From assembly GCA_016779525.1 (NCBI GenBank), contig JADHNL010000001.1, positions 13,109 to 77,108 of the forward strand: a stretch of DNA of 64,000 nt, read 5' to 3'. The position numbers and the translations under genes were made by a program. Shown here one piece after another: positions 21,632 through 56,699 of the stretch; position 1 is the first letter of the stretch, and each line of letters opens with the position of its first letter. A model generated the notes under the pieces. It made no database searches, was not told where the DNA came from, and saw nothing but the letters and a program-made list of their open reading frames with translations. The stretch is from SAR86 cluster bacterium. Lineage in GTDB: Bacteria; Pseudomonadota; Gammaproteobacteria; Magnimaribacterales; TMED112.

Positions 21632-21640
21632 AATTAACAC

Positions 21641-22411
21641 ATGAAAATTACAGTTGTAAGCGGCGGTTTTGACCCAATTCACTCAGGACATATATCTTAT
21701 ATAAAATCTGCTAAAGCATATGGAGACTACTTAATAATTGCTTTGAATAGTGATCAGTGGTTGGTGAATAAAAAAGGTAAAGCCTTTATGCCTTTTGAGG
21801 AAAGAAAATCTGTCCTAGAAAATCTAAAAGAAGTGGATGAAGTAATTGGCTTTGATGACGATGATCTTGGCAGCGCAACTCAGGCTTTAGTAAAAATCAA
21901 AAATATGTACCCCGAAAGTGAAATAAATTTCTGTAACGGTGGCGATAGAGGCAAAGACAACATCCCTGAAATGAAAGTTGATGGAGTGAATTTTATTTTT
22001 AGTGTTGGAGGAGACGATAAAAAAAATTCTAGTAGCTGGATACTAAAAAACTGGCAGTATGATGGCGAAGACAGGGTATGGGGTAATTTTTATAATCTAT
22101 TTGAGTCTGAGGGTATTAAGGTAAAAGAGCTTATAGTAAAACCTGGAAAAGGCATGAGCCTGCAAAAGCATTTTAAAAGAAGCGAAATATGGTTAGTCTC
22201 TGAGGGTCAGTGTGTTGTTAATTATTCAAAAGAATCCCCTGAAAGCACTAAAGAAATAAAGCTTTCTAAGTTTGATCAACTTACGGTTGAGCTGGGTGAC
22301 TGGCATCAGATAACTAATCCATTTGAAGAGACTTGTAAGATTATTGAAATACAGTACGGCGAAGAGACTGAAGAAGATGATATTGAAAGATATTCTTATT
22401 ATAAAGACTGA
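21641..22411 (+). CDS. Fusion protein: HxGH cytidylyltransferase-fold nucleotidyltransferase plus type II phosphomannose-isomerase-like cupin
   Basis: 256-aa ORF. The N-terminus [17 protein letters not shown] is the HIGH-type motif of the RfaE-II/TagD/CoaD-like cytidylyltransferase fold. The C-terminus [21 protein letters not shown]...WHQITNP...IIEIQYG is a cupin of the PMI type II C-terminal kind. Confidence 0.6.
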
Positions 22412-23760
22412 TGCCAGATTTTAAGGTAAAAGATATTAGTCTTGCTGAATTTGGCAGACAAGAAATTTTATTGGCTCAAGATGAAATGCCGGCGCTTATG
22501 GCATTGAGAGCAAAGTACAAAGATGAGCAGCCCCTAAAAGGCGCAAAAATTATGGGCTGCATTCATATGACTATCCAAACTGCAGTTCTTATTGAAACAC
22601 TCATTGATTTGGGTGCTGAGGTGAGATGGTCATCATGCAATATTTTTTCCACACAAGATCATGCCGCCGCCGCTATCGCTGACAAAGGCATCGCAGTTTT
22701 TGCTTGGAAAGGGGAGACGGAAGAAGAGTATGAGTGGTGTCTTGATCAAACAATCAACAAAGATGGAAAGCCTTGGGATGCTAATATGATTTTAGATGAT
22801 GGCGGTGACTTGACAGTAAAGGTTCATAAAGAATATCCAGAGATGTTAGATCTTATTCATGGTATCTCTGAAGAAACAACAACTGGCGTTAAACGTTTAA
22901 AGGAAATGTTAGCAAATGGAGATTTAAAAGTTCCAGCAATTAATGTCAATGACTCAATCACCAAATCAAAAAATGATAACAAGTATGGCTGTCGTCACGG
23001 ACTTGATGATGCTATTAAACGTGGGACTGATATGCTGCTTTCAGGAAAGAAAGCATTAGTTATTGGTTATGGTGATGTAGGCAAAGGGTCGGCAGATGCA
23101 CTTAATCAGCAAAAAATGATAGTAGACATTACTGAAGTAGATCCAATCTGTGCAATGCAGGCTTGTTTTGATGGTTTTTCAGTAGTGTCACCATATAGGG
23201 ATGGCAAAGTATCAGATTCTGGATCTAATGTTGATAAAGAGCTCCTCAAAAAATACGATCTTATCGTAACAACAACAGGAAACATTAACGTTTTAGATAG
23301 ATATATGCTTGATTGTTTAAAATCTGGTTGTGTCATATGTAATATTGGGCATTTTGATAATGAAATTGATATTAAGTACTTAAGAACTTTTAATTGGTAT
23401 GAGGTGAAACCTGGCGTTCACAAAATTCAAAGAGGTGAAGGTAGTTATTTATTATTATTAGGTGAGGGCCGGCTTGTAAATCTTGCTTTAGCAACAGGTC
23501 ATCCAAGCAGAGTTATGGATGGATCATTCTGTAATCAAGTTCTTGCCCAAATTTTCTTATTTAAAGAGGGCTTTGCTCATAAAAAAAATAAAGACAAAAA
23601 GCTTTATGTAAAAGTTTTACCTAAAAAATTAGATGAAGAGGTGGCCAGACTTATGGTTGAGGGGTTTGGAGGGACAATTACCCAACTTACCAATGAACAG
23701 GCCAATTATATATCAGTCGGAAAAAATGGACCTTTTAAAAATGATGATTACTCATATTGA
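22411..23760 (+). CDS. ahcY: Adenosylhomocysteinase
   Basis: 449-aa ORF with [39 protein letters not shown] and the NAD site [11 protein letters not shown]. Confidence 0.96.
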
Positions 23761-23882: not shown

Positions 23883-24455
23883 ATGAAAAAATATAGTTGC
23901 CTTGCAGATCAGGTACATACTCTTGGTGATTATTTAATTAGACCTGTTCAAAATGAAGAAATAAATCAAATTAGGCTCTGGAGAAATGAGCAGATAGAAG
24001 TTTTAAGACAAGACAAACTCATCAATAAATCAATGCAAATAGATTATTTCAAGAGAAAAATATGGCCACAGTATAAAAAAGACAAGCCAGAACAAATCTT
24101 GCTATCTATTTATAAAAATAAAATTTTTATAGGCTATGGAGGTCTAGTTTATATCAATTGGGATAATTTATCGGCAGAGGTGTCATTCTTATTGTGTACA
24201 GAAAGAATGAGCAAGCATGAACTGTATTCAAAAGATTTCAAAAGCTTTTTAACACTAATAAAATACCTAGCAACCAAAGAGCTTAATCTAAATTATTTAA
24301 CATCCGAAACTTATGTTTTCAGAAAAAAACATATAGAGATTTTAGAAAATGCATCATTTGAAGCTTATGGAGCAAAAGAAAATACGTTATCAATGCAAAA
24401 TAAAAAGTATGATTCAATATTGCATAAATGTAATCTTCAAATAAACACAAAATAA
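23883..24455 (+). CDS. GNAT-like N-acetyltransferase, PseH-like
   Basis: 190-aa ORF. LIRPVQNEEINQIRLWRNEQ carries the (I/L)xxWRN motif I associate with PseH-type GNATs of pseudaminic-acid pathways. It is in the same locus as pseI/B/C/F. Similarity is weak, so the family-level call is tentative. Confidence 0.45.
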   Translation: MKKYSCLADQVHTLGDYLIRPVQNEEINQIRLWRNEQIEVLRQDKLINKSMQIDYFKRKIWPQYKKDKPEQILLSIYKNKIFIGYGGLVYINWDNLSAEVSFLLCTERMSKHELYSKDFKSFLTLIKYLATKELNLNYLTSETYVFRKKHIEILENASFEAYGAKENTLSMQNKKYDSILHKCNLQINTK

Positions 24456-24456
24456 A

Positions 24457-25146
24457 ATGCAAGAAAACACAATAGATTGGATAAAGCATCACTTTAAACA
24501 GGTAGAAGCCATTTTTTTCGACTTTGATAATACTTTGGTTGATGAAAATTATTCAGTCAAAAATAGGTGGGATGTAATACTTGCCAAATATCAGAACATA
24601 ACTAATAACAACAAGCTAAGAGAAACCTTTTTTAAAATTTATAAAGATAAGGGCCAAGATTATAAGTATCATGTTGACGATGCACTCGATTGTTTAAATA
24701 TTAGCAAGAAATATAAAAAGAGTATTATTGATGAATTTCTTTGCCAGACATCTACTGATGAATCTGTTTATCCCTATGCAGAAGAAGTGTTAGAAGTGCT
24801 TTCAAACATGCATTTAAAATTAGCAATGTTTACAAATGGTTTAAAAAAAAATCAGGAACATAGGATTAAAATTTCTGGTATCTCAGACTTTTTTAAATAC
24901 ATTCAGTATGGTGACACATATAAGCTTAAGCCAGACCTAAATAGCTTCATGATGGTTTCTAAGGAGCTTAACTTATCTAACAAAAGAAAGTTTATAATGA
25001 TAGGCGACAGCTATAATGACGATTTTTTAGGGGCAAAAAGATGTGGTGCTGAATGTATTTTGATAAATTCAGAAATAAAAAATAATTTTTCAAGTCCTGT
25101 ATATTCTTCTTTAAAAGAGCTTTATGAGGATTTAAAACAAATATGA
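24457..25146 (+). CDS. HAD-superfamily hydrolase (subfamily IA-like)
   Basis: 229-aa ORF with motif I FFDFDNTLVD, a capped middle region, and motif IV MIGDSYNDDFLGA. Confidence 0.7.
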   Translation: MQENTIDWIKHHFKQVEAIFFDFDNTLVDENYSVKNRWDVILAKYQNITNNNKLRETFFKIYKDKGQDYKYHVDDALDCLNISKKYKKSIIDEFLCQTSTDESVYPYAEEVLEVLSNMHLKLAMFTNGLKKNQEHRIKISGISDFFKYIQYGDTYKLKPDLNSFMMVSKELNLSNKRKFIMIGDSYNDDFLGAKRCGAECILINSEIKNNFSSPVYSSLKELYEDLKQI

Positions 25147-26381
25147 GCAAATGTAAAAAAGATATGAAAGATGGAATATTAATAATCGGAGGAGGTCTTT
25201 TACAAATACCTGCCTTAATAAAAGCACATGAGCTAGGGCTTACAACACATTTAACTGATATTAATAGCAAATGTGCTGCAAGAGATTATTGTGATTATTT
25301 CTATGAAGTGGATATAAATGATTACGAGAAAACAGCAGATCTTGCTGTTAATCTGGTAACTCAAAATAAAATATCAGGAGTATATACACAAGGAACAGAT
25401 GCAGAATACACTGTTGCATATGCTGCTGAGAAAGCAAAGCTTTTTACAATTGGAGCTACCACTGCAAGAAAATCAAAGAATAAAGCCCTCATGAGAGACG
25501 CATTATCTGAGGCTGGTGTAGAAAATGTTAAATATAAAAAAATTAGTTGTTTTGATGAGTGTTTAAATGCTGCTGAGGAAGTTGGTTACCCTCTTTATAT
25601 GAAACCAACTGATAACTCTGCATCAAGAGGAATATCAAGGGTAAGCAATGCCAAAGAATTAAAAGATGCTTATGATTTTGCTGAAAAAAACCTTTTAAAT
25701 GAATCTGATATTTTATTAGAAGCTGAAATCATAGGAACTGAGCATAGTGTTGATTGTGTCATGTTTAATGGAATTCTTTATCCAGCAGGAATATCAGATC
25801 GTGTATTTCTTGAAAAAAATATATTTGCTGTTCAAACAGAGTCTATTACCCCCTCACTTTTGCCCTCAAAAATTCAAAAAGAAATGTATGAAAAGATGGA
25901 AATGGCAGCTGATGCAATTGGCATAAGATTTGGAGCTTTTAAAGGTGATCTTGTGGTTGATAGCAATAATAACGTTAGAATTATTGAAATCACTGCTAGA
26001 ACTTCTGGTGGTTTTGACTCTCAATATAGAAAACCTTTGTCGTTTGGTATAGATATATTAAAAGCAACAATTGACATTTCTATGGGAAAAAAACTTGATG
26101 TTCTTGATTTAATACCTAAGCATTTCTATAGATCTAAGACATATAGTCTTATGCCTCAACCAGGCAAGATAACTTCAATTGAGGGTCTTGAAGAGGCAAG
26201 AAAAATTGAAGGAGTTTATAAAATATTCATGACAAAAAATATTGGAGATATAATTCCTGAATATAAAGATTGTTCCATAAGGACAAATTTCATTACTATT
26301 TGTGCAAAAGACTCAGAAACATTAAGAAAAATTCAAGAGCAAGTTCACAAGACATTTAAAATAAAGACCTCTCAAGATTAA
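25143..26381 (+). CDS. ATP-grasp domain ligase (carboxylate-amine ligase type)
   Basis: 412-aa ORF. It has a pre-ATP-grasp Rossmann-like N-terminus (ILIIGGGLLQIPALIKA), then KALMRDALSEAGV...GYPLYMKPTDNSASRGISRV and IIEITARTSGG, as in ATP-grasp enzymes. Confidence 0.7.
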   Translation: MSKCKKDMKDGILIIGGGLLQIPALIKAHELGLTTHLTDINSKCAARDYCDYFYEVDINDYEKTADLAVNLVTQNKISGVYTQGTDAEYTVAYAAEKAKLFTIGATTARKSKNKALMRDALSEAGVENVKYKKISCFDECLNAAEEVGYPLYMKPTDNSASRGISRVSNAKELKDAYDFAEKNLLNESDILLEAEIIGTEHSVDCVMFNGILYPAGISDRVFLEKNIFAVQTESITPSLLPSKIQKEMYEKMEMAADAIGIRFGAFKGDLVVDSNNNVRIIEITARTSGGFDSQYRKPLSFGIDILKATIDISMGKKLDVLDLIPKHFYRSKTYSLMPQPGKITSIEGLEEARKIEGVYKIFMTKNIGDIIPEYKDCSIRTNFITICAKDSETLRKIQEQVHKTFKIKTSQD

Positions 26382-26426
26382 GCATATATTTTGCACATCA
26401 AATAATTTATAATTCTCAGAAATTCA

Positions 26427-27410
26427 ATGAAAAAGCTTAGTACAGGTATTAATGGTTTTGGAAGATTTGGTCTTCATTTATTGAAGTATTGGCTTGAAAG
26501 AAGTGAAGATGCAAATTTTAAGATAGATTTTATTAACGATGATTTCCTTAGTCAAAATAAACTTCTAGACATTATCAAAAATGACAAATATGTAACCTTC
26601 AACAAATATAAAATAAAATTAATAAGTAAAAATTATCTATCGATACTCAAGCCCTCAGGTGAGAGTTTTAAGATTCAAATTACAAATTCAACACCTGATG
26701 ATATCCAATGGCTTGGAAAGCCAGATATTTTCCTTGAATGTTCAGGAAAAAGAACAGTTTCTAAAGAAAATGAACAGTTGATCAAGGGCAATACAAAACT
26801 CATTGTTATATCAGCTACATCTTGGGATATACCAAAAACACTTGTTTATGGCTTCAACCATAATGATTATTCAAAAGACGATAAACAGGTTTCGTATGGC
26901 TCATGTACGGTGAATGCATACGTGCCTCTTGCAAATTATATGTACAAAAAATATAAATATACAAATAGTGATGTTAATGTTGTGCATAATGTAGCAGAGC
27001 ATAAATTAGAAGACACCCTTATACGAAAATTTTGCACGTTAGAAAAATCAGCTCAACAATTCTTCAATCACCTAAATGATAATAACTTTATTGTGAATTA
27101 CACAGTTGTTCCATACACAGGTGTTTCAATGATTGATTTTAGATTTCATATTCCAGATGGAATAAATATTGATGACTTTTTAGAAGAGTTCTCAAATGAA
27201 ATTACAGTTGGTTCATTAAAAGGCTTGTATGGTATGAATGAAACTGACATAGGACCTGAAGTACATAATTGCACAACATTTAGCACAGTATTTATTAAAG
27301 AGAATATTAAGGTTGTTGGTGATTCTCTTTATATGCATGGTTATTTTGACACAGAAAATTCCGTAAACAGGTACTATGATCTCGTTAACTTCATAGCAGA
27401 GAAAAATTAG
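26427..27410 (+). CDS. Glyceraldehyde-3-phosphate dehydrogenase-family paralogue (divergent)
   Basis: 327-aa ORF. GINGFGRFGLHLLKYW compares with GAPDH GINGFGRIGR; FINDDF with INDL; and the catalytic-Cys region YGSCTVNAYVPLA with SCTTNCLAPLA. It is otherwise highly diverged. Confidence 0.55.
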   Translation: MKKLSTGINGFGRFGLHLLKYWLERSEDANFKIDFINDDFLSQNKLLDIIKNDKYVTFNKYKIKLISKNYLSILKPSGESFKIQITNSTPDDIQWLGKPDIFLECSGKRTVSKENEQLIKGNTKLIVISATSWDIPKTLVYGFNHNDYSKDDKQVSYGSCTVNAYVPLANYMYKKYKYTNSDVNVVHNVAEHKLEDTLIRKFCTLEKSAQQFFNHLNDNNFIVNYTVVPYTGVSMIDFRFHIPDGINIDDFLEEFSNEITVGSLKGLYGMNETDIGPEVHNCTTFSTVFIKENIKVVGDSLYMHGYFDTENSVNRYYDLVNFIAEKN

Positions 27411-27429
27411 CTTTTTTAACAATTAACTT

Positions 27430-28479
27430 ATGAAAATTAATAACAAAGTTATTTCTAATGATAATCCTTATCTAATTGCTGAAATGTCTGGTAATCATAA
27501 AAAAGATTTTGCTAGGGCAATTGAGATTATTGATAAGGCCAAAGCTAACGGTGCCGATGCAGTAAAGTTTCAAACATACAAACCTGAAACCATAACAATG
27601 AATATGAAATCAGAAGCTTTCAAAGTTAAAGATAAGTTATGGTCTGGACGATATTTATGGGACGTATACGATGAAGGTTCAATGCCATGGGAAATGCAGG
27701 AGGAGCTTTTTAAATATTGTAAAGAAATATCATTCACTGCCTTCTCTTCGCCCTTTGATTTAACAGCAATAGAATTTCTTGAAAGAGTAGATGTCCCCGC
27801 ATATAAAATTGCGTCATTTGAAATACTAGATTTAGAGTTAATCTCTGAGTGCTGTAAAACAGGTAAACCAGTAATAATATCTACAGGCATGGCAAGTTAT
27901 GATGAAATTGATGATGCCATCAATGTTGCAACAAAATACACAGATAAAAGCAACTTATGCTTGTTACACTGCATATCAGGTTATCCTTCAAAACCTGAAG
28001 ACTATAATTTGAAGAAAATACCTGAATTAAGCAACAGATATGGTGTAAAGGTTGGGTTAAGCGATCACACAGAAGATAACTTAGTTCCACTTCTATCAGT
28101 GCCACTTGGCGCATGTGTTATTGAAAAACATATTACTCTATCAAAGGATGATGGGGCATTGGATAGCAAATTTTCCATGGATCCTAATCAGCTTAAAGAA
28201 CTGTCTGCCAAATTAAATATAGCTAGCAAAACTCTTGAAGGAGAAAAAAGAATTTCTGAGGGAGAGATAAATAATAGACTTTTTAGGAGGTCATTATATT
28301 TTGCAAAAGATCTTAAAAAAGGAGAAGTTATTGATAGGGATGCTATCAAGAGCATAAGGCCTGGCGATGGTTTAAAACCAAAGTATCTGTTAGATGTTAT
28401 TGGGAAGAAAGTATCTCAAGATGTATTTTATGGCACTCCTATTTTGAAAGAAAAAGTTATTGGTTTTCAGGAAAAATGA
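27430..28479 (+). CDS. pseI: Pseudaminic acid synthase (NeuB-family nonulosonate synthase)
   Basis: 349-aa ORF. NPYLIAEMSGNHKKDFARAIEIIDKAKANGADAVKFQTY and YKIASFE match the NeuB family, and a C-terminal SAF domain (IKSIRPGDGLKP) is present. The Pse assignment is by context with pseB/pseC/pseF. Confidence 0.75.
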   Translation: MKINNKVISNDNPYLIAEMSGNHKKDFARAIEIIDKAKANGADAVKFQTYKPETITMNMKSEAFKVKDKLWSGRYLWDVYDEGSMPWEMQEELFKYCKEISFTAFSSPFDLTAIEFLERVDVPAYKIASFEILDLELISECCKTGKPVIISTGMASYDEIDDAINVATKYTDKSNLCLLHCISGYPSKPEDYNLKKIPELSNRYGVKVGLSDHTEDNLVPLLSVPLGACVIEKHITLSKDDGALDSKFSMDPNQLKELSAKLNIASKTLEGEKRISEGEINNRLFRRSLYFAKDLKKGEVIDRDAIKSIRPGDGLKPKYLLDVIGKKVSQDVFYGTPILKEKVIGFQEK

Positions 28480-29525
28480 AAAAAATTATTTTTGCACCCA
28501 CATTTACAGAGGGCCATCAGAGTTCGTTTATGTTTAAATACATAAAAAACATATATGATGACAATACAATTATATACACTCCAAAAAATGACTATCTAGC
28601 TGATTTCAATTCAGTTGTGCAGGAAGATCTTTATTATTTTTTTCAAAATAGTGACCCCAGGCTTTATGAAGGTTTTCTAAATTATTGTGAAAGTATGCCT
28701 AATTCTAAATGCCTAATTCCAAACTTATCCCATCCGGAATTCTTATTATCAGAACTTAATATAAGAAAAGATTTGGATCTTAGACTTAGCACCTTTTCAG
28801 GCCAGTTATTTCATAGATCTAAAGCAAGACGAAAAGTGTTATCAGAACTTTTAAAAAAATTTTCGATAAAAAAAATAATAATACAATCTATTTTAGGTAA
28901 GAACTTTAGGCTACATGAATCAATTAATGATTATGATTTTTCGATCAATAAACATGTATATTTAGATGAACCATTTTATGATGAAGAGTATCTATTTGAA
29001 AAAAATATTGAACAAGAGAATGATAAAGCACTTTACTTCGGGACAATGTTCTATGGGAAAGGAGTTGACATTCTAATAGAGGCAGCAAATTTTATACAAA
29101 GCAATACTAAGTTAACTATAGCAGGTAACTTAAAAACTCAGAATTTTGATATGCCTTCTGTACCAGAAAACATTACCCTTAAAGATAAATACTTTGAAGA
29201 TGAAGAAATGATAGATGAATTCTTAAGTAGTAAATTTATCGTCTTGCCTTATAGAGATACATACAAACATGGAACTAGTGGTGTTTTAGTACAAGCTTGT
29301 AGATCTGGAAAGCCAGTTATTGTTCCAGATATTGCTCCCTTTTCAGATGTTATAAAAAGACATAAAATTGGCATTACTTTTAAGGCAAATGATCCAATAA
29401 GCCTTGCGAAAGCTATTGATAAAATGTCTGCTATGGATATAGGTAAAGAGTTTAAGTATAAGGTTAAAAGCTATATTGCTGAAATGACTACATGGGATGA
29501 TTTAAATAGAGAGGTTTGGAGCTAA
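28476..29525 (+). CDS. GT-B fold glycosyltransferase (GT1/GT4-like); possible PseG-role or Pse-transferase
   Basis: 349-aa ORF. Its C-terminal half (GKGVDILIEAA...LPYRDTYKHGTSGVLVQACRSGKPVIVPDIAPFSDVI) resembles the GT4 EX7E region with substitutions. It lies between pseI and pseB. Confidence 0.45.
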   Translation: MKKIIFAPTFTEGHQSSFMFKYIKNIYDDNTIIYTPKNDYLADFNSVVQEDLYYFFQNSDPRLYEGFLNYCESMPNSKCLIPNLSHPEFLLSELNIRKDLDLRLSTFSGQLFHRSKARRKVLSELLKKFSIKKIIIQSILGKNFRLHESINDYDFSINKHVYLDEPFYDEEYLFEKNIEQENDKALYFGTMFYGKGVDILIEAANFIQSNTKLTIAGNLKTQNFDMPSVPENITLKDKYFEDEEMIDEFLSSKFIVLPYRDTYKHGTSGVLVQACRSGKPVIVPDIAPFSDVIKRHKIGITFKANDPISLAKAIDKMSAMDIGKEFKYKVKSYIAEMTTWDDLNREVWS

Positions 29526-30508
29526 TGTTTAATGGAAAATCTATTTTAATTACTGGAGGTACAGGCTCTTTTGGGAAAGCTTTTTGTAACTTCTTGAGAA
29601 AAAACTATAAGCCACTACGTGTAGTAATTTTTTCTAGAGATGAAATGAAGCAGTGGGAGATGGCAAAGGATTATGATGAAAAGTTCTTTAGATTTTTCCT
29701 TGGAGATGTTAGGGACAAAGATAGACTAAGATTTGCATTGAAAGACGTAGATTTTGTAGTTCATGCTGCTGCGATGAAAATTGTTCCTACGGCAGAATAT
29801 GACCCTATGGAATGCGTAAAGACAAATGTTATGGGTGCAATGAATGTTATTGAAGAATGTCTTCTAGCTGATTCAGTTACAAATGTTGTTGCATTATCAA
29901 CGGATAAGGCTTCATCTCCAATTAACCTTTATGGAGCAACAAAACTTACTTCCGATAAACTTTTTGCAGCAGCAAATAACTTTAAAGGAAAAAAAGATAT
30001 CAAATTTTCGGTCGTTAGATACGGGAATGTAATGTGTTCACGTGGATCAGTAATACCTTTTTTTCAGTCTCTATCTGCAGAAGATGATATACCTATAACT
30101 GACTTAAATATGACTAGATTTATGATTTCTTTAGAGGAAGGTGTTGATCTTGTAAAAATAGCCTTTGAAGACTCTTTGGGAGGCGAAATTTACGTGAGAA
30201 AGATTCCTTCAATGAAGGTGATGGATATTGCTGAAGCTGTCACAGGAAGAAAAGACTTCAAGGAAATAGGAATTAGGCTTGGTGAAAAGATTCATGAGCA
30301 AATGATAAGTGCTGAAGAATCCTATACAACCTATGAATATCAAAACTATTATAAGATTCTTCCTCAATTTAATGATTGGGGCACAGATAAAAATAGAATC
30401 AAAGATGGATCAAAAGTCAAAGAGGGCTTTATTTACTCTAGTGAAACAAATAAAGACTGGATGAGCAATGAGGCTCTCAAGGAATTTCTTGCGAAGAATA
30501 AGCAATGA
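29516..30508 (+). CDS. pseB: UDP-N-acetylglucosamine 4,6-dehydratase (inverting), PseB/FlaA1-type
   Basis: 330-aa ORF. GKSILITGGTGSFGKAF, VIFSRDEMKQWEM, FFLGDVRDKDRL, HAAAMKIVPTAEYDPMECVKTNVMGAMNV and VRYGNVMCSRGSVIP closely parallel H. pylori FlaA1 as I recall it. Confidence 0.88.
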   Translation: MELMFNGKSILITGGTGSFGKAFCNFLRKNYKPLRVVIFSRDEMKQWEMAKDYDEKFFRFFLGDVRDKDRLRFALKDVDFVVHAAAMKIVPTAEYDPMECVKTNVMGAMNVIEECLLADSVTNVVALSTDKASSPINLYGATKLTSDKLFAAANNFKGKKDIKFSVVRYGNVMCSRGSVIPFFQSLSAEDDIPITDLNMTRFMISLEEGVDLVKIAFEDSLGGEIYVRKIPSMKVMDIAEAVTGRKDFKEIGIRLGEKIHEQMISAEESYTTYEYQNYYKILPQFNDWGTDKNRIKDGSKVKEGFIYSSETNKDWMSNEALKEFLAKNKQ

Positions 30509-31635
30509 TTCCCTATGGCAAGCAAGATATAGATCAAGACGACATCACAGAGGTCGTAAATGTTTTAAAATCTGATTTCTTAACTCAAGGCCCAAAAATT
30601 TTAGAATTTGAAGACAGCATATCAAGATATGTTGGTAGCAGATTCACTGTTGCTGTCAATTCTGCCACTTCCGCATTACATCTTGGATGTCTAGCGCTTG
30701 GTGTAGAAAAAAAAGATTTAGTGTGGACATCATCAAATTCATTTGTAGCGTCATCAAATGCCGCATTGTATTGCGGTGCAGAGATTGATTTTGTTGACAT
30801 AGATTCGAGAAATAACAATATGTGCACAGAAGCACTTGAAAAGAAATTGGTAACTGCTAAAAAGAAAGGAATGATTCCTAAAGTTGTAATTCCTGTTCAT
30901 CTTGGGGGGTTGTCATGCGATATGAAAAAAATTTTTGATCTGTCAAAAGATTTTGGTTTCAAAATCATTGAAGATGCAAGTCACTGTATTGGTGGCGATT
31001 TTGATGATGAAAAAATAGGTTCTTGCAAATATTCAGACTTATGTGTTTTTAGCTTTCATCCAGTAAAAATAATAACTACAGGAGAAGGAGGCGCAATCAC
31101 TACAAACTCACAAACTTTAGCAAAAAAAATTACTGCTCTTCGTAGCCATGGAATAACTAGAAATAAAGAAGAATTTAAAAAATGTTTTGTTCCAGATTGG
31201 TATTATCAACAACATTTTCTGGGCTTTAATTACAGAATTACTGATTTGCAAGCAGCCCTTGGGATCTCACAACTAAAACGAATAGACAGCTTTATTAAGA
31301 AAAGAAGAAAAATTGCAAAATATTTTACAGAAAATTTAAATGCTGACTTTAAAACTATCACTACAGAAGAAATAAAGATCTCTTCAAACCACTTATTTAT
31401 TATAAAAAATAACCGCAGAGACGAACTAAGAGAATATTTACTTAAACATGAAATATTTACCACATTGCATTATTTTCCGATACATCTGCAACCTTTTTAT
31501 GCCTCAATGGGGTTCAAATTAGGTGATTTTCCAAATACTGAAAAATATGGAGATGAAGCTCTTTCAATTCCTATCCATACAAACCTTAACGAACATGATG
31601 TGAACTATATTGTTGAAGTAGTAAACAAATTCTGA
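30505..31635 (+). CDS. pseC: UDP-4-amino-4,6-dideoxy-N-acetyl-beta-L-altrosamine transaminase (DegT/PseC family)
   Basis: 376-aa ORF. The N-terminus IPYGKQDIDQDDITEVVNVLKSDFLTQGPK is typical of PseC. SFHPVKIITTGEGG contains the PLP lysine. Confidence 0.85.
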   Translation: MIPYGKQDIDQDDITEVVNVLKSDFLTQGPKILEFEDSISRYVGSRFTVAVNSATSALHLGCLALGVEKKDLVWTSSNSFVASSNAALYCGAEIDFVDIDSRNNNMCTEALEKKLVTAKKKGMIPKVVIPVHLGGLSCDMKKIFDLSKDFGFKIIEDASHCIGGDFDDEKIGSCKYSDLCVFSFHPVKIITTGEGGAITTNSQTLAKKITALRSHGITRNKEEFKKCFVPDWYYQQHFLGFNYRITDLQAALGISQLKRIDSFIKKRRKIAKYFTENLNADFKTITTEEIKISSNHLFIIKNNRRDELREYLLKHEIFTTLHYFPIHLQPFYASMGFKLGDFPNTEKYGDEALSIPIHTNLNEHDVNYIVEVVNKF

Positions 31636-31637
31636 AT

Positions 31638-32312
31638 ATGAAAATCTTGACAATTATTCCAGCAAGAGGCGGTAGTAAAAGAATTGAGAAGAAAAATATA
31701 AAACCCTTTCTTGGAATGCCCATGATGGCTTGGCCAATAAAATCATTAAAAGACTCTAATATTGAAATGGATATTGTAGTGTCATCAGATGATAAAGAGA
31801 TCTTGCAAATTGCAGAAGAGCTTGGGGTAGAAGCAGTTAAAAGGGATGAAAAATTATCCGATGACTATACAACTTCAATGGAAGTAGTTAATGATTATGT
31901 AGAATCCATTGGAAATATCTATGATCTGATAATTAAGATATATCCGACAACGCCGTATTTAGATATTTCAGCATTAAAAAAAGGGATAGAGTTAATTACT
32001 GCAGAAAAAAATGCCTTCTCTCTTGCTAGTATTAAAGAATTTCCTCACCCTATCTCAAGGAAACTTATAAATGAAAATAAATTTGCAAGATTTAAAGACA
32101 AAAAATATGCAAAGCAAAGGACTCAAGATTGTGAAAAGTATTACTATGATGCAGCAAATTTTTATATTTTTAAAAAAAGATTCTTTGAAGAGAGTATGGA
32201 TATTTTTGATGGCTCCACTATTGGAGTTGAGGTTGATAAGATGTTATGTGTTGACATAGACAATACCGAAGATTGGAAATTGGCCGAAAGGCTTATAAAG
32301 TTTAGTGTATAA
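31638..32312 (+). CDS. pseF: Pseudaminic acid cytidylyltransferase (CMP-NeuAc synthetase family)
   Basis: 224-aa ORF with ILTIIPARGGSKRIEKKNIKPFLG and VVSSDD, lying directly after pseB-pseC. Confidence 0.78.
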   Translation: MKILTIIPARGGSKRIEKKNIKPFLGMPMMAWPIKSLKDSNIEMDIVVSSDDKEILQIAEELGVEAVKRDEKLSDDYTTSMEVVNDYVESIGNIYDLIIKIYPTTPYLDISALKKGIELITAEKNAFSLASIKEFPHPISRKLINENKFARFKDKKYAKQRTQDCEKYYYDAANFYIFKKRFFEESMDIFDGSTIGVEVDKMLCVDIDNTEDWKLAERLIKFSV

Positions 32313-32565: not shown

Positions 32566-34236
32566 TTAAAGGTTTATTAAATAATTAATCCACTCTCTAC
32601 GCCACTTTTTTGAAGTTAAAGCATATTTTTCATTGAAGTTTTTTCTTAAATTCTGAATTTTTTGGCTCTGCCACCATTCACTTATATTCCTATTGTTTAA
32701 AAAATTGATAAGTTCAATATGGTTGTCGTGCCATATTGAATGAGATTTAAGCTCTTCAAAAGTTTCTTCTGCATCTTTTTCCATGGGGTAAAGCTCTTTA
32801 TCCCAAAACAAAAATGTAGGCACATTTGCACTCATTGCTATATTTAATGTTGTACCTGGGTGATCTAAAATCAGACATTTACAACCTAAAAGTCTATCAT
32901 GAAAGTTTCCTTTTAATATTTTTAGATTATTGATATTTGATTGAAAAAATTCTAAAGCTGCTATTGCTCCATCTTTTTTTGGATGGGGCCTGTAAAAGAA
33001 TTCAATATCATAACTTTGCATCTCTTCCATAAGATTAAGCTGTTTATAAAGCAATCTATGCCATTCAAGTTGAGTTGGGCTTGGCGATAAGTACCTATTT
33101 ACATTATTCATTCTTGTAGTAGCAAGTAATACAGACTCACTATTTTGCTTATATTTATCCTTAAACTTTGTTAAGTATGGTGATGGGAGCCTATCAAAAA
33201 CTGCTTTATAGTTAGAGTGGTTTTGCCAGCCCCAAGTTATAAACCTAAATTGAGAAAATTCATTCTCATAAACCTCCTCACAGTGTCTTGCAAAACCATA
33301 ACTGCCACCACCATGTTGAAAGCCTACTAACTTATCCCCTCTAGATAATGCATTAGCTATTCTTAATCTGTATTTATCATCGACCCTCATTATGTGTGAA
33401 CCTAGTAAAAATTTTGATCTTTTAGCTTTTTTAAAAGTTGTTTTAGGTAATTTCTTTAAACTCTTAATGCTTTTAGGCATTGTCAGATAAAATAATTTTT
33501 CTATTGGTATGAAGTTCAAACCATGAATATCTAATTTCTTTTCGCTTAAAATTCTATCTTGCCTCTTTGATTCTGTTTTAAATGAATTAAAAAATAAAAT
33601 TGCTGAAGCTACCAGTTGCTCAAGAAGGCTAAAACCATATACCCTTTGTGCCCTCAAAAAACTCCTGCTAAGATCAATAAAAAATTCTTTAAAGGACTTT
33701 AGTTTTTTTGCTTTTTTATTAAAAAAAAACTTTTTTTTAGTTTCTCTAATTATAAATTCATTTGAGGTATTTCTAATAACTAGTGAAGTAAGCCATTCAT
33801 TAAAATCTACTGAATTTAAAGAGTCATGAATATCAACTGTTTCTAGAAAACCGATTTGATCTTCATTACAAATAATTTTTACAAAAACCTGCTTTGAATA
33901 GCTATGTTGAAATTTCTTTAGTTGCATATACTTTTCTAGATAGCTCTGAATAACTAGAATTAACCATGGGTACATAATTGTCTTGTAGAATATGTAATTT
34001 TGATTCAAATCAAATTCGTTATTAAACTTGTCAACATTTGTTTTAATAAAGTTTTTAACAAATAATGATGATCTTTTATCAAGCTCTTCAAAATCAATTT
34101 CTCTTCTTTCTATAAAAGAAAATATCTCATATTTGTTAAAATTTTTATCTCCGGCTGGTAAGGAGTATGTATTGAAAAGTACATGCTTTTTTGGATTAAA
34201 ATTTTTCGGCAAGGAGCCTATTATTAACTGCTTCAT
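32566..34236 (-). CDS. Large uncharacterised transferase-like protein (candidate nonulosonic/ulosonic-acid transferase)
   Basis: 556-aa ORF with no family I recognise confidently. The C-terminal half has GT-B-like features: GFQHGGGSYGF, FFYRPHPKKDG (an HP motif like bacterial sialyltransferases) and LILDHPGTTLNIAMSANVPTFLFW. Its stop codon lies 1 nt from the tRNA-Leu 3' end. Confidence 0.3.
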   Translation of the reverse strand: MKQLIIGSLPKNFNPKKHVLFNTYSLPAGDKNFNKYEIFSFIERREIDFEELDKRSSLFVKNFIKTNVDKFNNEFDLNQNYIFYKTIMYPWLILVIQSYLEKYMQLKKFQHSYSKQVFVKIICNEDQIGFLETVDIHDSLNSVDFNEWLTSLVIRNTSNEFIIRETKKKFFFNKKAKKLKSFKEFFIDLSRSFLRAQRVYGFSLLEQLVASAILFFNSFKTESKRQDRILSEKKLDIHGLNFIPIEKLFYLTMPKSIKSLKKLPKTTFKKAKRSKFLLGSHIMRVDDKYRLRIANALSRGDKLVGFQHGGGSYGFARHCEEVYENEFSQFRFITWGWQNHSNYKAVFDRLPSPYLTKFKDKYKQNSESVLLATTRMNNVNRYLSPSPTQLEWHRLLYKQLNLMEEMQSYDIEFFYRPHPKKDGAIAALEFFQSNINNLKILKGNFHDRLLGCKCLILDHPGTTLNIAMSANVPTFLFWDKELYPMEKDAEETFEELKSHSIWHDNHIELINFLNNRNISEWWQSQKIQNLRKNFNEKYALTSKKWRREWINYLINL

Positions 34237-34435: not shown

Positions 34436-35947
34436 GTGAAGAAAAGTAATTTTATACAAAGAATTAAGGATACATATAGTTGGAACTTTATTTCTAACAT
34501 TTTAAATTTTGGATCTTTAATCTTTGCTTCAAGTCTAATTTCTACAAATTCTGAGGTTTTTGCAGTTTACTCAGTTGTATTTTCTTTATTTTATCTTATT
34601 GGTTATTTTGATTTTGGCTTTACTTCTTCTGCAATAAAGTTTTACTCAGAATATTATCAAATTAATGAAGATAAAGGCTATCAAATTTTAGGTTTTATTT
34701 TTTTTATCTTTCTAGTGCTAGGAGTTCTATTTGCTACATTCTTTATCTTTTTAGGATCTTCAAACCTAATGAGTGCTTACTATGGTGGCGAGAGTTTAAA
34801 GATCTTTCAGTCATTAATTTCTGTTAGTGCTTTATTTGTATTCACAATCGCAATAAAAAAGTTAGGTGATGTTTTTTATACTTCAACAATTCAAACCTAT
34901 ATACAACAAAAGGCAATAGCTATAGGTTCTATCGTTAAAATTCTTTTATGCTTTTACTGTTTTATCTATAAAGATTACCTTATATACCAATACTTTCTAG
35001 GCTTTTTAACTATTGAATTGTTTGTTGCTCTTTACCTTTTCTACAGAATTGTAGATAGTCAGCTTAACTTCGCCTTAATTGCTAGAAATATAAAATTTAA
35101 CCGCAAAATATTTAAAGAACAGTACCAATTGGCTGCTGCAACAATTTTTGGTGCACTTGTCGCAATTATTTGCTATGAAAATGACGTTCTCATTGCTCAA
35201 TTAATTTTTGATGCTAGTCAGGTCTATTTAGTATCAGCTATATTCTTTCTTGCGCTCCCAATTAAAAGAGTCATCAATATTTTCTTTATGCCTTTATCTC
35301 CAAGATTAAATCATTTTTATGGTAAAAATAATAACCAGAGTGTTAATTCATTATTTTTGTCTTCTATAGATTTGCTTAAATTATTTGCACCATTCTTTTC
35401 CTGCTTGATGTTGGCAACGCCTGAAATAATTTTCTTAATTTATGGCAATAGTTATATTGATGCAGTTGGGCTTTTTAACACTGTAATTTTTGCATTTTTA
35501 CTTATTTTTTTTAAATTTCCTTTAATCTCATATTTCAGAACATACTTAAAAACAAAGACCTTGCTTTTTTCTGCAATTTTAGATTTATGTTGCTTTTTAT
35601 TATTCTTATATTTAACAAAAAACTCCCTTGGCCTATATTCAATTTTTTTGGCAAAAGTTTTTTCTGGAGTCATCACAATAATTTATTTAACTGTTTCAGC
35701 AAAACACTTCACTTCTAAAATTTTTAGCTTATTTGCAAAGAGCTTCATATTCTTCTTCATGCCGATATTATTTTTTCTGCTCTTATGCCTCATATTTATC
35801 AATGATTCTCTAATAAGCATATATTTCAAGCCATCATTAATTAAAACATTATTTTTGATAATATCTTTTGCGCTTGCCCTAGTTATAGCTTACAACCAAA
35901 GGAATTTAGTAAAAAAAATTCTTATCCTATATAATTCCCAAGATTGA
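34436..35947 (+). CDS. Wzx-like polysaccharide flippase (MOP superfamily), copy 1
   Basis: 503-aa ORF with a GTG start. It is extremely hydrophobic, with about 12 or more predicted TM segments, and has the size and context typical of O-unit flippases. Confidence 0.5.
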   Translation: MKKSNFIQRIKDTYSWNFISNILNFGSLIFASSLISTNSEVFAVYSVVFSLFYLIGYFDFGFTSSAIKFYSEYYQINEDKGYQILGFIFFIFLVLGVLFATFFIFLGSSNLMSAYYGGESLKIFQSLISVSALFVFTIAIKKLGDVFYTSTIQTYIQQKAIAIGSIVKILLCFYCFIYKDYLIYQYFLGFLTIELFVALYLFYRIVDSQLNFALIARNIKFNRKIFKEQYQLAAATIFGALVAIICYENDVLIAQLIFDASQVYLVSAIFFLALPIKRVINIFFMPLSPRLNHFYGKNNNQSVNSLFLSSIDLLKLFAPFFSCLMLATPEIIFLIYGNSYIDAVGLFNTVIFAFLLIFFKFPLISYFRTYLKTKTLLFSAILDLCCFLLFLYLTKNSLGLYSIFLAKVFSGVITIIYLTVSAKHFTSKIFSLFAKSFIFFFMPILFFLLLCLIFINDSLISIYFKPSLIKTLFLIISFALALVIAYNQRNLVKKILILYNSQD

Positions 35948-36903: not shown

Positions 36904-37532
36904 ATGGATTTGATTTAAAAAATTATCATATTTTTTTTTGGGACTTTGATGGTGTTATAAAAAGATCTAATCAGATAAAAGTTGATGCGTTTAAACAACT
37001 TTTCAAAGATTCTGATTGTGTAGATAAAATTATAGAACATCATATACAGAACCAAGGTATCTCAAGATATGAAAAAATACCTCTTTACCTAATGATTTCA
37101 GGTAGGGATACGTCTAAACCAAATGTAGCTAAGTATATTCAGGAATTTTCAGATATTGTCGTAGATAAGGTTGTTCATTCAGACTGGATTCCCGGGGTGC
37201 TCCAATTTTTAGAAAAAACATCAGCAAAAGTAAATATCATCGTAACAGGAACACCTCAAAATGAAATTGAAATGATTCTTCAGCAGCTTAAACTTGATAA
37301 ACAATTCGATTATATTTATGGGGCTCCTCACAATAAAACAGACTCTATAAAAAATATAATTAGCAGCAATGATATTTGTATAAAAAAAATGATAATGATT
37401 GGCGATTCTATGGAAGATTTCAATGCCGCAGTTAAGAATCAAATTGATTTTATGTTAATTGAAAATGAATACAATTCCTTTATTGATAGAAAGAAATGTA
37501 TGATTTGTGCGAGCGATTTCCTTGATTTATGA
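36900..37532 (+). CDS. HAD-superfamily hydrolase/phosphatase
   Basis: 210-aa ORF with motif I FFWDFDGVIKRS and motif IV MIGDSMEDFNAA. Confidence 0.65.
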   Translation: MNGFDLKNYHIFFWDFDGVIKRSNQIKVDAFKQLFKDSDCVDKIIEHHIQNQGISRYEKIPLYLMISGRDTSKPNVAKYIQEFSDIVVDKVVHSDWIPGVLQFLEKTSAKVNIIVTGTPQNEIEMILQQLKLDKQFDYIYGAPHNKTDSIKNIISSNDICIKKMIMIGDSMEDFNAAVKNQIDFMLIENEYNSFIDRKKCMICASDFLDL

Positions 37533-38949: not shown

Positions 38950-38950
38950 G

Positions 38951-56696: not shown

Positions 56697-56699
56697 AGC

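Follow-up and report, generated by a model that had tools for sequence, protein, structure and literature searches.

A pseudaminic acid operon of a SAR86 cluster bacterium carries a widely conserved phosphatase/ATP-grasp ligase/GAPDH-like cassette that probably adds an unusual sugar decoration

Nine open reading frames are located on the plus strand at positions 23883-32312 of the 64 kb stretch of DNA analysed here (the window), which originates from the MAG of a SAR86 cluster bacterium. An ORF check returned the same coordinates as the preliminary description of this DNA. The genes are co-directional and mostly overlap (by 4-10 nt), the remaining gaps being at most 45 nt, and they form a single operon. 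Three of the core pseudaminic acid (Pse) enzymes scored above their NCBIfam cut-offs: PseB, the inverting UDP-GlcNAc 4,6-dehydratase (29516-30508; TIGR03589, 494 bits, cut-off 408), the aminotransferase PseC (30505-31635; TIGR03588, 490 bits, cut-off 423.5) and PseI, the pseudaminic acid synthase of the NeuB family (27430-28479; TIGR03586, 418 bits, cut-off 340; Pfam NeuB and SAF). The PseF-like CMP-pseudaminic acid synthetase (31638-32312; Pfam CTP_transf_3) reached 197.2 bits with TIGR03584, slightly under the cut-off of 205.7. The earlier assignment of the pse core was thereby borne out and, judged from these profile matches, the canonical backbone steps are covered by PseB, PseC, PseI and the PseF-like enzyme.

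The first gene of the operon (23883-24455) encodes a GNAT acetyltransferase with a WRN motif (Pfam Acetyltransf_4, 59 bits) that belongs to a divergent PseH-like family. A search against NCBIfam gave no PseH match (TIGR03585) at E<=0.001; PseH was nevertheless its sole NCBIfam match, full length but weak (E=0.0077). When the alignment of the GNAT family (A5) was compared with that of PseH (A6), hhalign returned a probability of 99.9% (E 7e-33). Orthologues with 37-51% identity were found in related clusters. The GNAT is, at the level of profile comparison, a divergent relative of PseH, which makes its proposed role as a PseH stand-in plausible, and it is predicted to act as an N-acetyl (or acyl) transferase on the 4-amino sugar.

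Between the GNAT gene and pseI lie three genes for a phosphatase, a ligase and a dehydrogenase-like protein. The phosphatase (24457-25146) is a HAD-IA protein of the CTE7/NANP-like subfamily (Pfam HAD_2, 74 bits; TIGR02253, 95 bits, under the cut-off) with an intact motif I, DFDNT (DxDxT), and its relatives in the PDB include N-acylneuraminate-9-phosphatase (E 1e-5). The ATP-grasp protein (25143-26381; Pfam ATP-grasp_4 and LAL_C2) is of the L-amino-acid-ligase type; its nearest solved structures are BacD (1.7e-18), BL00235 and RizA, and it is predicted to form an amide bond. It has 187 homologues, some of them fused to HAD or to Gp_dh_N. The third protein (26427-27410) is a paralogue within the GAPDH superfamily, a Cys/His thiol dehydrogenase or reductase whose substrate site is non-canonical and which has more than 548 homologues. 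Pfam detected only Gp_dh_N (32 bits) and NCBIfam GAPDH-I gave 97 bits (cut-off 367), whereas the family profile matched GAPDH over the full length (4e-34). Aligned with GapA and Epd of E. coli, the protein keeps the catalytic C150 and H177; R232 is replaced by V, the S-loop is shortened with deletion of the part bearing R195, and TGAAK is changed to RKFCTLEKS. Missing from the paralogue are therefore the residues through which true GAPDH and Epd bind the substrate phosphate and inorganic phosphate. A derivation from glyceraldehyde-3-phosphate of the glyceroyl-type group that the preliminary description offered as an example consequently has no direct sequence support, and a specifically glyceroyl product is unproven.

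The HAD gene adjoins or is fused to the ATP-grasp gene in 63 loci (43 after dereplication), and these 43 loci stem from bacteria, CPR and DPANN archaea. The gene downstream of the ATP-grasp encodes a GAPDH-like protein in 26 of 34 loci and a PdxA-family dehydrogenase in 7 of 34, suggesting that the chemistry takes in phosphorylated C3-C4 compounds more broadly. Several members are joined in single proteins: HAD with ATP-grasp (P0185, P0236), ATP-grasp with Gp_dh_N (P0227) or with the GAPDH-like protein (L012, 748 aa), GNAT with HAD and ATP-grasp (L040, 859 aa), and GNAT with a rSAM-methyltransferase, HAD and ATP-grasp (L056, 1334 aa). Among the 22 cassette loci with enough flank, NeuB and DegT/PseC are each found in 17, a PseB-like gene and a class-III aminotransferase each in 15, and the GNAT of the operon's family is absent from 10. 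The trio is present without nonulosonic-acid (NulO) genes within 10 kb in L004 and L057. These counts indicate that the trio is co-conserved with pse/NeuB genes, so the lack of co-conservation that the preliminary description named as evidence against its proposal was not observed. Gene order and fusions argue that HAD, ATP-grasp and GAPDH-like protein are a real cassette, predicted to work as one functional unit, and we infer a mobile tailoring cassette to which the GNAT is often attached. The syntenic relative L067 carries the same backbone with a different cassette (SDR-ATP-grasp and HAD). The GAPDH-like family also adjoins Cj1295-type DUF4910 and AAC(3)-like genes and pairs with an AMP-ligase and an ACP. 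Cj1295 has been linked to Pse carrying di-O-methylglyceric acid (PMC3068675). We found no description of the HAD/ATP-grasp/GAPDH-like cassette in the literature; it is uncharacterised yet widely conserved, and its probable effect is an unusual modification of the sugar.

No canonical PseG had been recognised in the preliminary description, and three types of search agreed. PseG (TIGR03590) had no NCBIfam match at E<=0.001, the Pfam domains Glyco_tran_28_C and Epimerase_2 were absent from every tested ORF between 9302 and 63918, and an HMM built on four annotated PseG proteins, which recovers PseG in nine other loci, matched none of the window ORFs of >=60 aa at E<=1. A canonical PseG or NeuC is thus undetectable within the window, and the UDP-releasing step, normally carried out by PseG, has no recognisable gene in the operon. 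Clusters with the cassette mostly have no PseG in cis, be a GT4-like gene present or not, so that such an absence is common; neither of the two genes occurs in the closest cassette relatives (L071-L078). Canonical PseG stands alongside the cassette at L104, L116 and L135/L141, for example, which identifies the cassette as an add-on and not as a PseG substitute.

The best in-operon candidate for the UDP-sugar hydrolase is the GT4-like GT-B protein encoded between pseI and pseB (28476-29525; Pfam Glycos_transf_1, 53 bits, no N-terminal GT4 domain detected by Pfam), which could equally be a transferase. Homology to PseG beyond the GT-B fold was rejected: hhalign gave a probability of 0.4%, and the best Foldseek matches of the AF2 model (pLDDT 91) were all GT4 transferases (WaaG, PimA, PglA, HepE, MshA). 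The His noted earlier at the first EX7E position is present as His265 in KHGTSGVLVQAC, with Gln273 at the second; across the family the first position varies (H/Y/G/N/F/L), so that the His gives no evidence of a catalytic switch. We consider the chances evenly balanced that the protein is an ordinary glycosyltransferase of a polysaccharide locus and that the real pseG lies outside the 64 kb window, which covers just a portion of the genome. Fold and sequence matches to GT4 transferases only, the variable His, the frequent lack of PseG in cis and a homologue on a phage-like contig without NeuB speak for this assignment. Arguing against it, the protein has kept neither of the EX7E glutamates nor the Arg that is usual in the GT4 diphosphate motif, and the family is tiny (48 proteins, with the invariant motif LPYRxTY..TSGV..Q). 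On long contigs its homologues occur, besides the phage case, in five cluster types, all NulO and without PseG/NeuC domains, where they adjoin NeuB or an SDR, usually NeuB. Moreover, the proteins available for transfer steps in the window already include a canonical GT4, a GT2 and a member of the LIC12162 transferase family.

Taken together, the operon may make a CMP-activated Pse with a substituent beyond the standard two acetyls, a cassette-based scheme to which we give an even chance. The ATP-grasp ligase would form an amide between a sugar amino group, namely the 4-amine installed by PseC that later becomes N7 of Pse, and a carboxylate on a small C3-C4 metabolite that bears a phosphate. 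This metabolite would be formed or converted by the NAD-dependent GAPDH-like enzyme, a part played in sister cassettes by the PdxA-family enzyme. After ligation the HAD phosphatase would strip the phosphate, yielding a hydroxyacyl- or hydroxyaminoacyl-type N-acyl Pse, glyceroyl being one option. UDP release would fall to the GT4-like protein, unless this is a transferase and pseG is encoded elsewhere. PdxA-family enzymes catalyse oxidative decarboxylation to a ketone or amine; no carboxylate partner results from this, and a single simple scheme therefore does not accommodate both versions of the cassette. The phosphorylated aldehyde substrate is an assumption, given a GAPDH-like protein without the canonical phosphate-binding residues. 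Also counting against the scheme are the well-flanked loci that have no GNAT of this family, the two loci without nearby NulO genes and, for the GT4-like protein, its lack in L071-L078 together with that of PseG. The same logic, in which a phosphorylated building block is ligated and then dephosphorylated, applies to Cj1438C (amidoligase) and Cj1435 (HAD phosphatase), which act on glucuronate in the Campylobacter jejuni capsule (PMC11800397). An ATP-grasp_4 protein, SfmE, takes part in the NulO modification of Shewanella flagellin (PMC3765264), and N-glyceroyl Pse exists, its responsible genes being without assignment as of 2017 (PMC5378307).

An ArgA/B/C-like carboxylate reduction is less probable than this amide scheme and on the whole unlikely. 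Here the GNAT would N-acetylate an amino-acid-like precursor, the ATP-grasp would generate an acyl-phosphate, the GAPDH-like enzyme would reduce it to an aldehyde (reverse GAPDH) and the HAD would remove a side-chain phosphate, the aldehyde being transaminated or built into an unusual substituent or sugar. Kinases and Cys-reductases form well-known pairs (PGK/GAPDH, AK/ASADH, ArgB/ArgC), and the ATP-grasp-GAPDH-like fusions (P0227, L012), which suggest acyl-phosphate channelling, fit such reductase logic at least as well. The pairing with AMP-ligase and ACP and the SDR-ATP-grasp fusions of related backbones likewise put an activating enzyme together with an NAD(P) oxidoreductase, a combination known from carboxylic-acid reductases; the class-III aminotransferase (ArgD family) in most well-flanked loci and the fused GNAT also agree. 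However, this aminotransferase is absent from the window operon, release of acyl-phosphates is not usual for ATP-grasps of the L-amino-acid-ligase type, the SDR fused to the other ATP-grasp resembles the nucleotide-sugar epimerase/dehydratase type, and where PdxA, itself no acyl-phosphate reductase, takes the GAPDH-like slot, ATP-grasp and HAD stay.

Quite improbable is a C1-amide, for which the ATP-grasp would activate the Pse carboxylate (free, CMP-bound or glycan-bound) and couple a phosphorylated amine that the HAD then dephosphorylates. The textbook reaction of PdxA produces the phospho-amine 3-amino-2-oxopropyl phosphate, suiting the PdxA-family cassette partner, and Cj1438C/Cj1435 are a direct precedent. 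Yet the amine cannot come from the GAPDH-like enzyme, neither an additional aminotransferase nor a decarboxylase is encoded in the window operon, and the GNAT fusion is left unexplained. That the trio comprises unrelated metabolic genes placed in the operon by chance, as the large generic superfamilies and the two loci without nearby NulO genes might suggest, is effectively refuted by the co-conservation statistics, the fusions, the gene order kept across bacteria and archaea and the overlap of the cassette genes with their operon neighbours.

Convergent with the pse operon, the LIC12162-family protein (32566-34236, minus strand; TIGR04331, 185.6 bits, cut-off 225) may serve as the transferase of the completed sugar. 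Its orthologue in L067 (32% identity, annotated PF27859) follows GT4l-SDR.

The window derives from a MAG of a SAR86 cluster bacterium, and three proteins encoded in it match NCBI entries of that name at 100% identity. Neighbours among the nine plus-strand ORFs at 23883-32312 either overlap by 4-10 nt or are no more than 45 nt apart, a layout pointing to an operon; a promoter and terminator scan was uninformative, with fewer matches than in shuffled sequence. Three of the products exceed the respective NCBIfam equivalog cut-offs, namely PseB (29516-30508, +; 494 bits, cut-off 408), PseC (30505-31635, +; 490 bits, cut-off 423.5) and PseI (27430-28479, +; 418 bits, cut-off 340), and the PseF-like protein (31638-32312, +) has TIGR03584 as its best match by far (197.2 bits, equivalog cut-off 205.7). 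The pse core is ordinary. Pfam assigned the remaining five ORFs to Acetyltransf_4, HAD_2, ATP-grasp_4 plus LAL_C2, Gp_dh_N (only 32 bits) and Glycos_transf_1, and PseG models matched none of the five. Glyco_tran_28_C and Epimerase_2 domains were absent from the ORFs tested between 9302 and 63918. An HMM built from four PGAP-annotated PseG proteins from plasmids found nothing at E<=1 among the ORFs of the window; the same HMM recovered PseG in nine other fetched loci. Given the NCBIfam and Pfam assignments and the empty PseG profile searches in the window (TIGR03590 and our own HMM), the preliminary description of the operon as a pse cluster with no recognisable PseG was correct. Like the canonical PseB-PseC-PseH-PseG-PseI-PseF pathway to CMP-pseudaminic acid (C. 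jejuni, H. pylori; T. forsythia, PMC5378307), the operon has PseB, PseC and PseI above equivalog cut-offs, together with PseF-like and PseH-like counterparts that lie under their family cut-offs, all in a single operon; in contrast to that pathway, it lacks PseG and contains four additional genes (HAD, ATP-grasp, GAPDH-like and GT4-like).

The GNAT encoded at 23883-24455 had been proposed to stand in for PseH, and comparison at the profile level makes this plausible. Its sole NCBIfam match is the PseH model TIGR03585, which is covered from position 4 to 153 of 156 at 16.3 bits (E 0.0077; cut-off 93.1). Orthologues of the GNAT, found within PseB/PseC/NeuB clusters, match the PseH model better (1e-7 and 2e-4), and an alignment of ten orthologues was aligned by hhalign to a PseH alignment with a probability of 99.9% (E 7e-33, 160 columns), the latter alignment including three metagenomic sequences that bridge the GNAT and PseH groups. 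A direct PDB sequence search with the GNAT returned no PseH structure; the relation is visible only at the level of profiles. The protein is treated here as a divergent PseH-like enzyme.

Between the GNAT and pseI lie genes for a HAD protein (24457-25146), an ATP-grasp protein (25143-26381) and a GAPDH-like protein (26427-27410), referred to as the cassette. The preliminary description had suggested, as a hypothesis, that this cassette N-acylates the sugar with a group other than acetate, and had named a lack of co-conservation of the three genes with pse genes in relatives as part of what would speak against it. Homology searches yielded 187 homologues of the ATP-grasp protein and more than 548 of the GAPDH-like protein. 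Scanning genomes with the GAPDH-like alignment gave 59 loci from Patescibacteria, Woesearchaeota, cyanobacteria, Sphingobium, Streptomyces, Magnetococcales, Pelagibacterales, Prochlorococcus and others, and scanning metagenomes with the ATP-grasp alignment gave 80 loci. Sphingobium faniae, Streptomyces geranii and Pelagibacterales MiE-29 are examples of cassette carriers with closed genomes. Cassette genes were called by HMMs and phmmer over all ORFs, and the loci were dereplicated at 95% identity. An ATP-dependent ligase and a HAD phosphatase thus form a conserved couple in glycan loci: the HAD-ATP-grasp pair was found in 43 distinct loci after dereplication, and several fusions occur. Among the ATP-grasp matches, two are HAD+ATP-grasp fusions (P0185, P0236) and one is an ATP-grasp+Gp_dh_N fusion (P0227); the fetched loci further encode an ATP-grasp+GAPDH-like fusion of 748 aa (L012), a GNAT+HAD+ATP-grasp fusion of 859 aa (L040) and a fusion of 1334 aa that adds a B12-radical-SAM methyltransferase between GNAT and HAD (L056). 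Where sequence downstream of the pair was available, the next gene was GAPDH-like in 26 of 34 loci and of the PdxA family in 7 of 34, with 308-337 bits on Pfam PdxA; PdxA-linked and GAPDH-like-linked members were interleaved in a rough neighbour-joining tree of the ATP-grasp proteins.

Twenty-two loci had at least 6 kb of upstream and at least 4 kb of downstream sequence. NeuB was present in 17 of these, DegT/PseC likewise in 17, a PseB-like protein in 15, the GNAT in 12, a class-III aminotransferase in 15, a class-I methyltransferase in 14 and canonical PseG in 2. These counts show co-conservation with pse genes and make the cassette a true accessory element of clusters for nonulosonic acids. 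It is not a substitute for PseG, since it can sit beside canonical PseG (L104, L116 and L135/L141, among others). PseG or NeuC is repeatedly missing from such clusters, which raises the question of how the nucleotide is removed before the synthase step. Our literature searches on ATP-grasp proteins with pseudaminic or nonulosonic acid, on LIC12162 and on SAR86 with pseudaminic acid did not return a description of the cassette, and the PseG-less architecture together with the cassette represents undescribed variants of nonulosonic-acid biosynthesis with tailoring. Nonulosonic acids cover flagella, capsules and S-layers, and their N-acyl decorations govern immune recognition, phage adsorption and surface charge. 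To our knowledge, the genes that install most of the non-acetyl groups are still unknown. The cassette, which is conserved, sometimes fused and present in CPR and DPANN lineages as well as in bacteria that abound in the ocean (SAR86, Pelagibacterales, Prochlorococcus), is a candidate for this decoration chemistry and a marker by which modified sugars might be predicted from metagenomes.

The ATP-grasp protein is of the L-amino-acid-ligase type, with Pfam ATP-grasp_4 and LAL_C2 at 47.9 and 44.7 bits and with the L-amino-acid ligases BacD (1.7e-18), BL00235 and RizA as its nearest relatives; it falls far under the BacD and DdaF equivalog cut-offs and thus represents a new subfamily. The HAD protein (Pfam HAD_2, 74 bits) carries motifs I-IV of HAD phosphatases: residues 22-26 read DFDNT, an intact DxDxT, and GDSYNDD lies close to the C-terminus. 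It belongs to the CTE7-like HAD-IA group, with N-acylneuraminate-9-phosphatase (about 1e-5) among its relatives in the PDB.

The GAPDH-like family aligns with GAPDH over the full length (4e-34), and the protein of the window scores well below the equivalog cut-offs of both GAPDH-I (97 bits versus 367) and E4PD (71.5 bits versus 530). The NAD motif GxGxxG and the catalytic Cys and His (Cys149/His176; Cys150/His177 in the alignment with E. coli GapA and Epd) are retained, and GINGFGRFG, SYGSCTVNA and NVVHN are invariant across the family. The GAPDH phosphate-site residues (T179, R195, T208-G209, R231) are not retained, and comparison with E. coli GapA and Epd shows an S-loop that lacks about 15 residues, TVVPY in place of FRVPT (Arg to Val) and an invariant RKFCTLEKS in place of TGAAK. 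Binding of glyceraldehyde-3-phosphate in the canonical manner is not supported, the phosphate site being altered. The retained NAD motif, Cys and His, combined with the altered S-loop, FRVPT and TGAAK segments, lead us to predict a thiol-dependent enzyme that works as an aldehyde dehydrogenase or an acyl reductase and has a new substrate site. The vitamin B6 pathway of E. coli offers a parallel in employing both of the families that replace each other downstream of the HAD-ATP-grasp pair: Epd (GapB), a paralogue of GAPDH, has a phosphorylated C4 aldehyde as its substrate, and PdxA a phosphorylated C4 hydroxy-amino acid. The GAPDH-like protein differs from Epd in its low score with the Epd model (71 bits, cut-off 530), in the lack of R232 and in its shortened S-loop, and the cassette resides in a context of glycan biosynthesis rather than cofactor synthesis.

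Of the models that we considered, ligation followed by dephosphorylation appears to be the best supported. The ATP-grasp enzyme would join a sugar amine to a small phosphorylated acid as an amide, the acid being supplied or processed by the dehydrogenase; the HAD enzyme would strip the phosphate after ligation, and the GNAT would either perform the PseH step or acetylate the appended group. A comparable arrangement, in which a surface-glycan locus encodes both an ATP-dependent amide ligase and a HAD phosphatase, was demonstrated experimentally for the C. jejuni HS:2 capsule, where the C-terminal amidoligase of Cj1438 acts with the phosphatase Cj1435 (PMC11800397); the likeness lies in the pairing and in the proposed logic of joining a phosphorylated partner and removing its phosphate afterwards. 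In the C. jejuni system the amine partner is made by PLP enzymes and the acid is C6 of glucuronate, whereas in the window the companion is a GAPDH-like (elsewhere PdxA-family) dehydrogenase and the sugar a nonulosonic acid. By description, the ATP-grasp protein also resembles SfmE (SO_3265) of Shewanella oneidensis, an ATP-grasp_4 protein of the same length (412 aa) that is encoded with a NeuB gene in a flagellin modification operon and whose loss lowers the mass of the modification (PMC3765264), but neither a HAD nor a GAPDH-like partner is reported there. The ligation model fits the existence of N-glyceroyl pseudaminic acids without reported genes, the T. forsythia work stating explicitly that the genes for the glyceroyl (Gra) group are unknown (PMC5378307).

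Two other schemes remain. In the first, the ATP-grasp enzyme would form an acyl-phosphate that the GAPDH-like enzyme reduces, by analogy with ArgA/B/C; in its favour are the fusions of ATP-grasp with GAPDH-like proteins and the class-III aminotransferase that many loci encode. In the second, the carboxylate of the sugar itself would be amidated with a phospho-amine, for which the chemistry of PdxA speaks. Neither these two schemes nor the ligation model accounts cleanly for the GAPDH-like and PdxA variants together.

The GAPDH-like gene also occurs in other surroundings. It was found beside genes for an ACP-like protein, an AMP-binding ligase, a phosphatase of the inositol-monophosphatase family, an AAC(3)-like acyltransferase and a DUF4910/DUF2172/HTH_47 protein, elsewhere with a carbamoyltransferase and a methyltransferase, and in five loci (L010, L020, L048, L049, L058) beside a TagD-like cytidylyltransferase. 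A theme that recurs around the gene is an activator of carboxylates in the company of an NAD-dependent enzyme, a phosphatase and an N-acyltransferase. We take the domain architecture of the DUF4910 protein to be that of C. jejuni Cj1295. Annotated as an 'aminopeptidase', Cj1295 is required for the di-O-methylglyceric-acid form of pseudaminic acid, which disappears upon its loss (PMC3068675). The known glyceric-acid systems (Pse5Am7Gra of T. forsythia, V. vulnificus, and the di-O-methylglyceroyl Pse of C. jejuni 11168 with the Cj1295 locus; PMC5378307, PMC3068675) concern non-acetyl N-acyl pseudaminic acids, the kind of product predicted for the operon, and the GAPDH-like family adjoins Cj1295-type DUF4910/DUF2172, AAC(3)-like, AMP-ligase and ACP genes in other loci; the window, however, contains no Cj1295-type gene. 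In four loci from Defluviicoccus and myxobacteria (L023, L024, L028, L051), the GAPDH-like gene has the gene of a fused thiamine-diphosphate E1-type enzyme (686 aa) on one side and a gene of the PdxA family on the other, the E1-type/TPP and PdxA labels deriving from reading representative sequences and not from a family search. Nonulosonic-acid genes were not detected in these four loci, so the GAPDH-like family has at least one other metabolic context.

The protein encoded at 28476-29525 had been named as the only PseG candidate. Its gene overlaps pseI by 4 nt and its AlphaFold (AF2) model (pLDDT 91) adopts a GT-B fold, two features expected of PseG. Pfam Glycos_transf_1 scored 53.4 bits, above the gathering score of 26.4. 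A structure search with the model turned out in favour of GT4: the 50 best Foldseek matches in the PDB were mostly GT4 retaining transferases, with WaaG, PimA, PglA, HepE and MshA in the top ranks (E 2e-11 for WaaG, PimA and PglA), and PseG was not among these 50. TIGR03590 did not match the protein even at E<=10, nor did our own PseG HMM, and hhalign of the family against a ten-member PseG alignment gave a probability of 0.4%. The latter alignment has G14, G16, H17 and R20 as invariants, in line with what we assume to be the N-terminal G-x-G-H motif of PseG, in which His17 is presumably catalytic in the C. jejuni enzyme. The N-terminus of the GT4-like protein is FAPTFTEGHQSSFMFKY; a conserved motif of the G-x-G-H type was not found across its family, and the PseG invariants have no counterpart. 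On these grounds (NCBIfam, our own HMM, hhalign and Foldseek) a diverged PseG is rejected.

With the GT4 retaining glycosyltransferases WaaG, PimA, PglA and MshA the protein shares the GT-B fold (TM 0.65-0.72), a Glycos_transf_1 score above the cut-off and the KG motif, but both EX7E glutamates are replaced (H265...Q273) and an N-terminal GT4 domain is not recognisable. The preliminary description had singled out the His at the first position. This position varies between H, Y, G, N, F and L across a 16-member alignment of the family, so that His265 is uninformative and is rejected as a meaningful catalytic replacement; the second position is a conserved Gln, and LPYRxTY..TSGV..Q is invariant among the 16 members. 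Judged from this alignment, loss of both glutamates is a trait of the family.

The family is small (48 proteins from a search of 5.8 billion sequences) and, in contrast to the GT4 transferases, found in nonulosonic-acid clusters. The surroundings of the gene are more informative than its sequence motifs. Six homologues are located on long contigs (P0005, P0006, P0016, P0019, P0021, P0028), all within clusters with Polysacc_synt_2, DegT and CTP_transf_3, most of them also with the orthologous GNAT and NeuB. The gene adjoins NeuB or an SDR in these clusters, and PseG- or NeuC-type domains were not seen in them. A fusion of about 630 aa between an SDR and a PylC-like ATP-grasp shares the cluster in five of the six contexts, four of these five also containing a HAD. 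One such locus (L067) is syntenic with the window well past the limits of the operon. A member with 31% identity (L002:8552-9643) lies on a phage-like contig of many small ORFs, with a DNA ligase, a possible ATP-grasp (faint match), KduI, two SDRs and a GT2 as neighbours and NeuB absent. From the contexts of its homologues, the GT4-like protein is a nonulosonic-acid-cluster specialist, apart from this one phage-like contig. The family HMM found no member in about 140 loci fetched via the GAPDH-like or ATP-grasp genes, and an obligate partnership with the cassette is rejected on this basis. A role as a PseG-like hydrolase is possible for the GT4-like protein. We consider unlikely the combined proposal that the cassette (with GAPDH-like or PdxA, and the GNAT often fused) is an undescribed, widespread route by which marine bacteria, CPR bacteria and DPANN archaea equip pseudaminic-type sugars with a substituent other than acetyl, possibly the genetic basis of glyceroyl-type N-acylation, and that the GT4-derived protein is a third independently evolved GT-B nucleotide-sugar hydrolase replacing PseG.

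Convergent with the pse operon, an LIC12162-family transferase is encoded at 32566-34236 (-; TIGR04331 185.6 bits, cut-off 225), and beside it, at 34436-35947 (+), a protein of 503 aa without a family match. Orthologues of both (32% and 30% identity, respectively) directly follow the GT4-like-SDR pair in L067/L068. The LIC12162-family transferase, together with a canonical GT4 and a GT2 downstream, could cover the transfer steps. Just downstream of the operon, a second sugar-acid-like gene set (35944-44838) encodes two SDR epimerases, a HAD, a 6-phosphogluconolactonase-like protein, a 267-aa protein without assignment, an HpaI/HpcH-type class II aldolase, a KdsB-like CMP-transferase (235 bits, subfamily cut-off 193), a Wzy-like protein, a phosphoglycerate-dehydrogenase-like 2-hydroxyacid dehydrogenase and a further SDR. 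The aldolase, CMP-transferase, dehydrogenase and SDR are kept in the same order in L067, and the set may produce a CMP-activated ulosonic acid, with a pyruvate aldolase in the place of a synthase of the NeuB/KdsA type. On the other side, directly upstream of the operon (20504-23760), a TagD/RfaE-type nucleotidyltransferase fused to a mannose-6-P-isomerase-type cupin (256 aa in all) is encoded between metK (SAM synthetase) and ahcY (SAH hydrolase). At 17854-20507, the maximal ORFs of PheS (240 aa) and PheT (644 aa) are below typical bacterial lengths, consistent with a streamlined genome. A HAD, a UbiA prenyltransferase, a FAD_binding_4 oxidase and a short-chain dehydrogenase are encoded in a row at 55303-58708, a set that presumably resembles the mycobacterial DprE1/DprE2-type genes for lipid-linked epimerisation of decaprenyl-phosphoribose to arabinose.

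In the fetched loci, the 1334-aa GNAT/B12-binding radical-SAM methyltransferase/HAD/ATP-grasp fusion of Woesearchaeota is encoded at L056:5936-9940 and L114:7232-11236, and L040 contains, by PseI, an FkbM-family methyltransferase, an APS kinase and a protein with a faint likeness to sulfotransferases (Pfam E about 0.002, under the gathering score). These genes hint that nonulosonic acids of DPANN archaea are methylated or sulfated. An accessory set consisting of an aldo-keto reductase (sometimes DegT-fused), a CTP_transf_3-class-III aminotransferase fusion and DUF218 recurs in pse-type clusters with or without canonical PseG (L071, L040, L052, L005, L066 and the plasmid locus L152).
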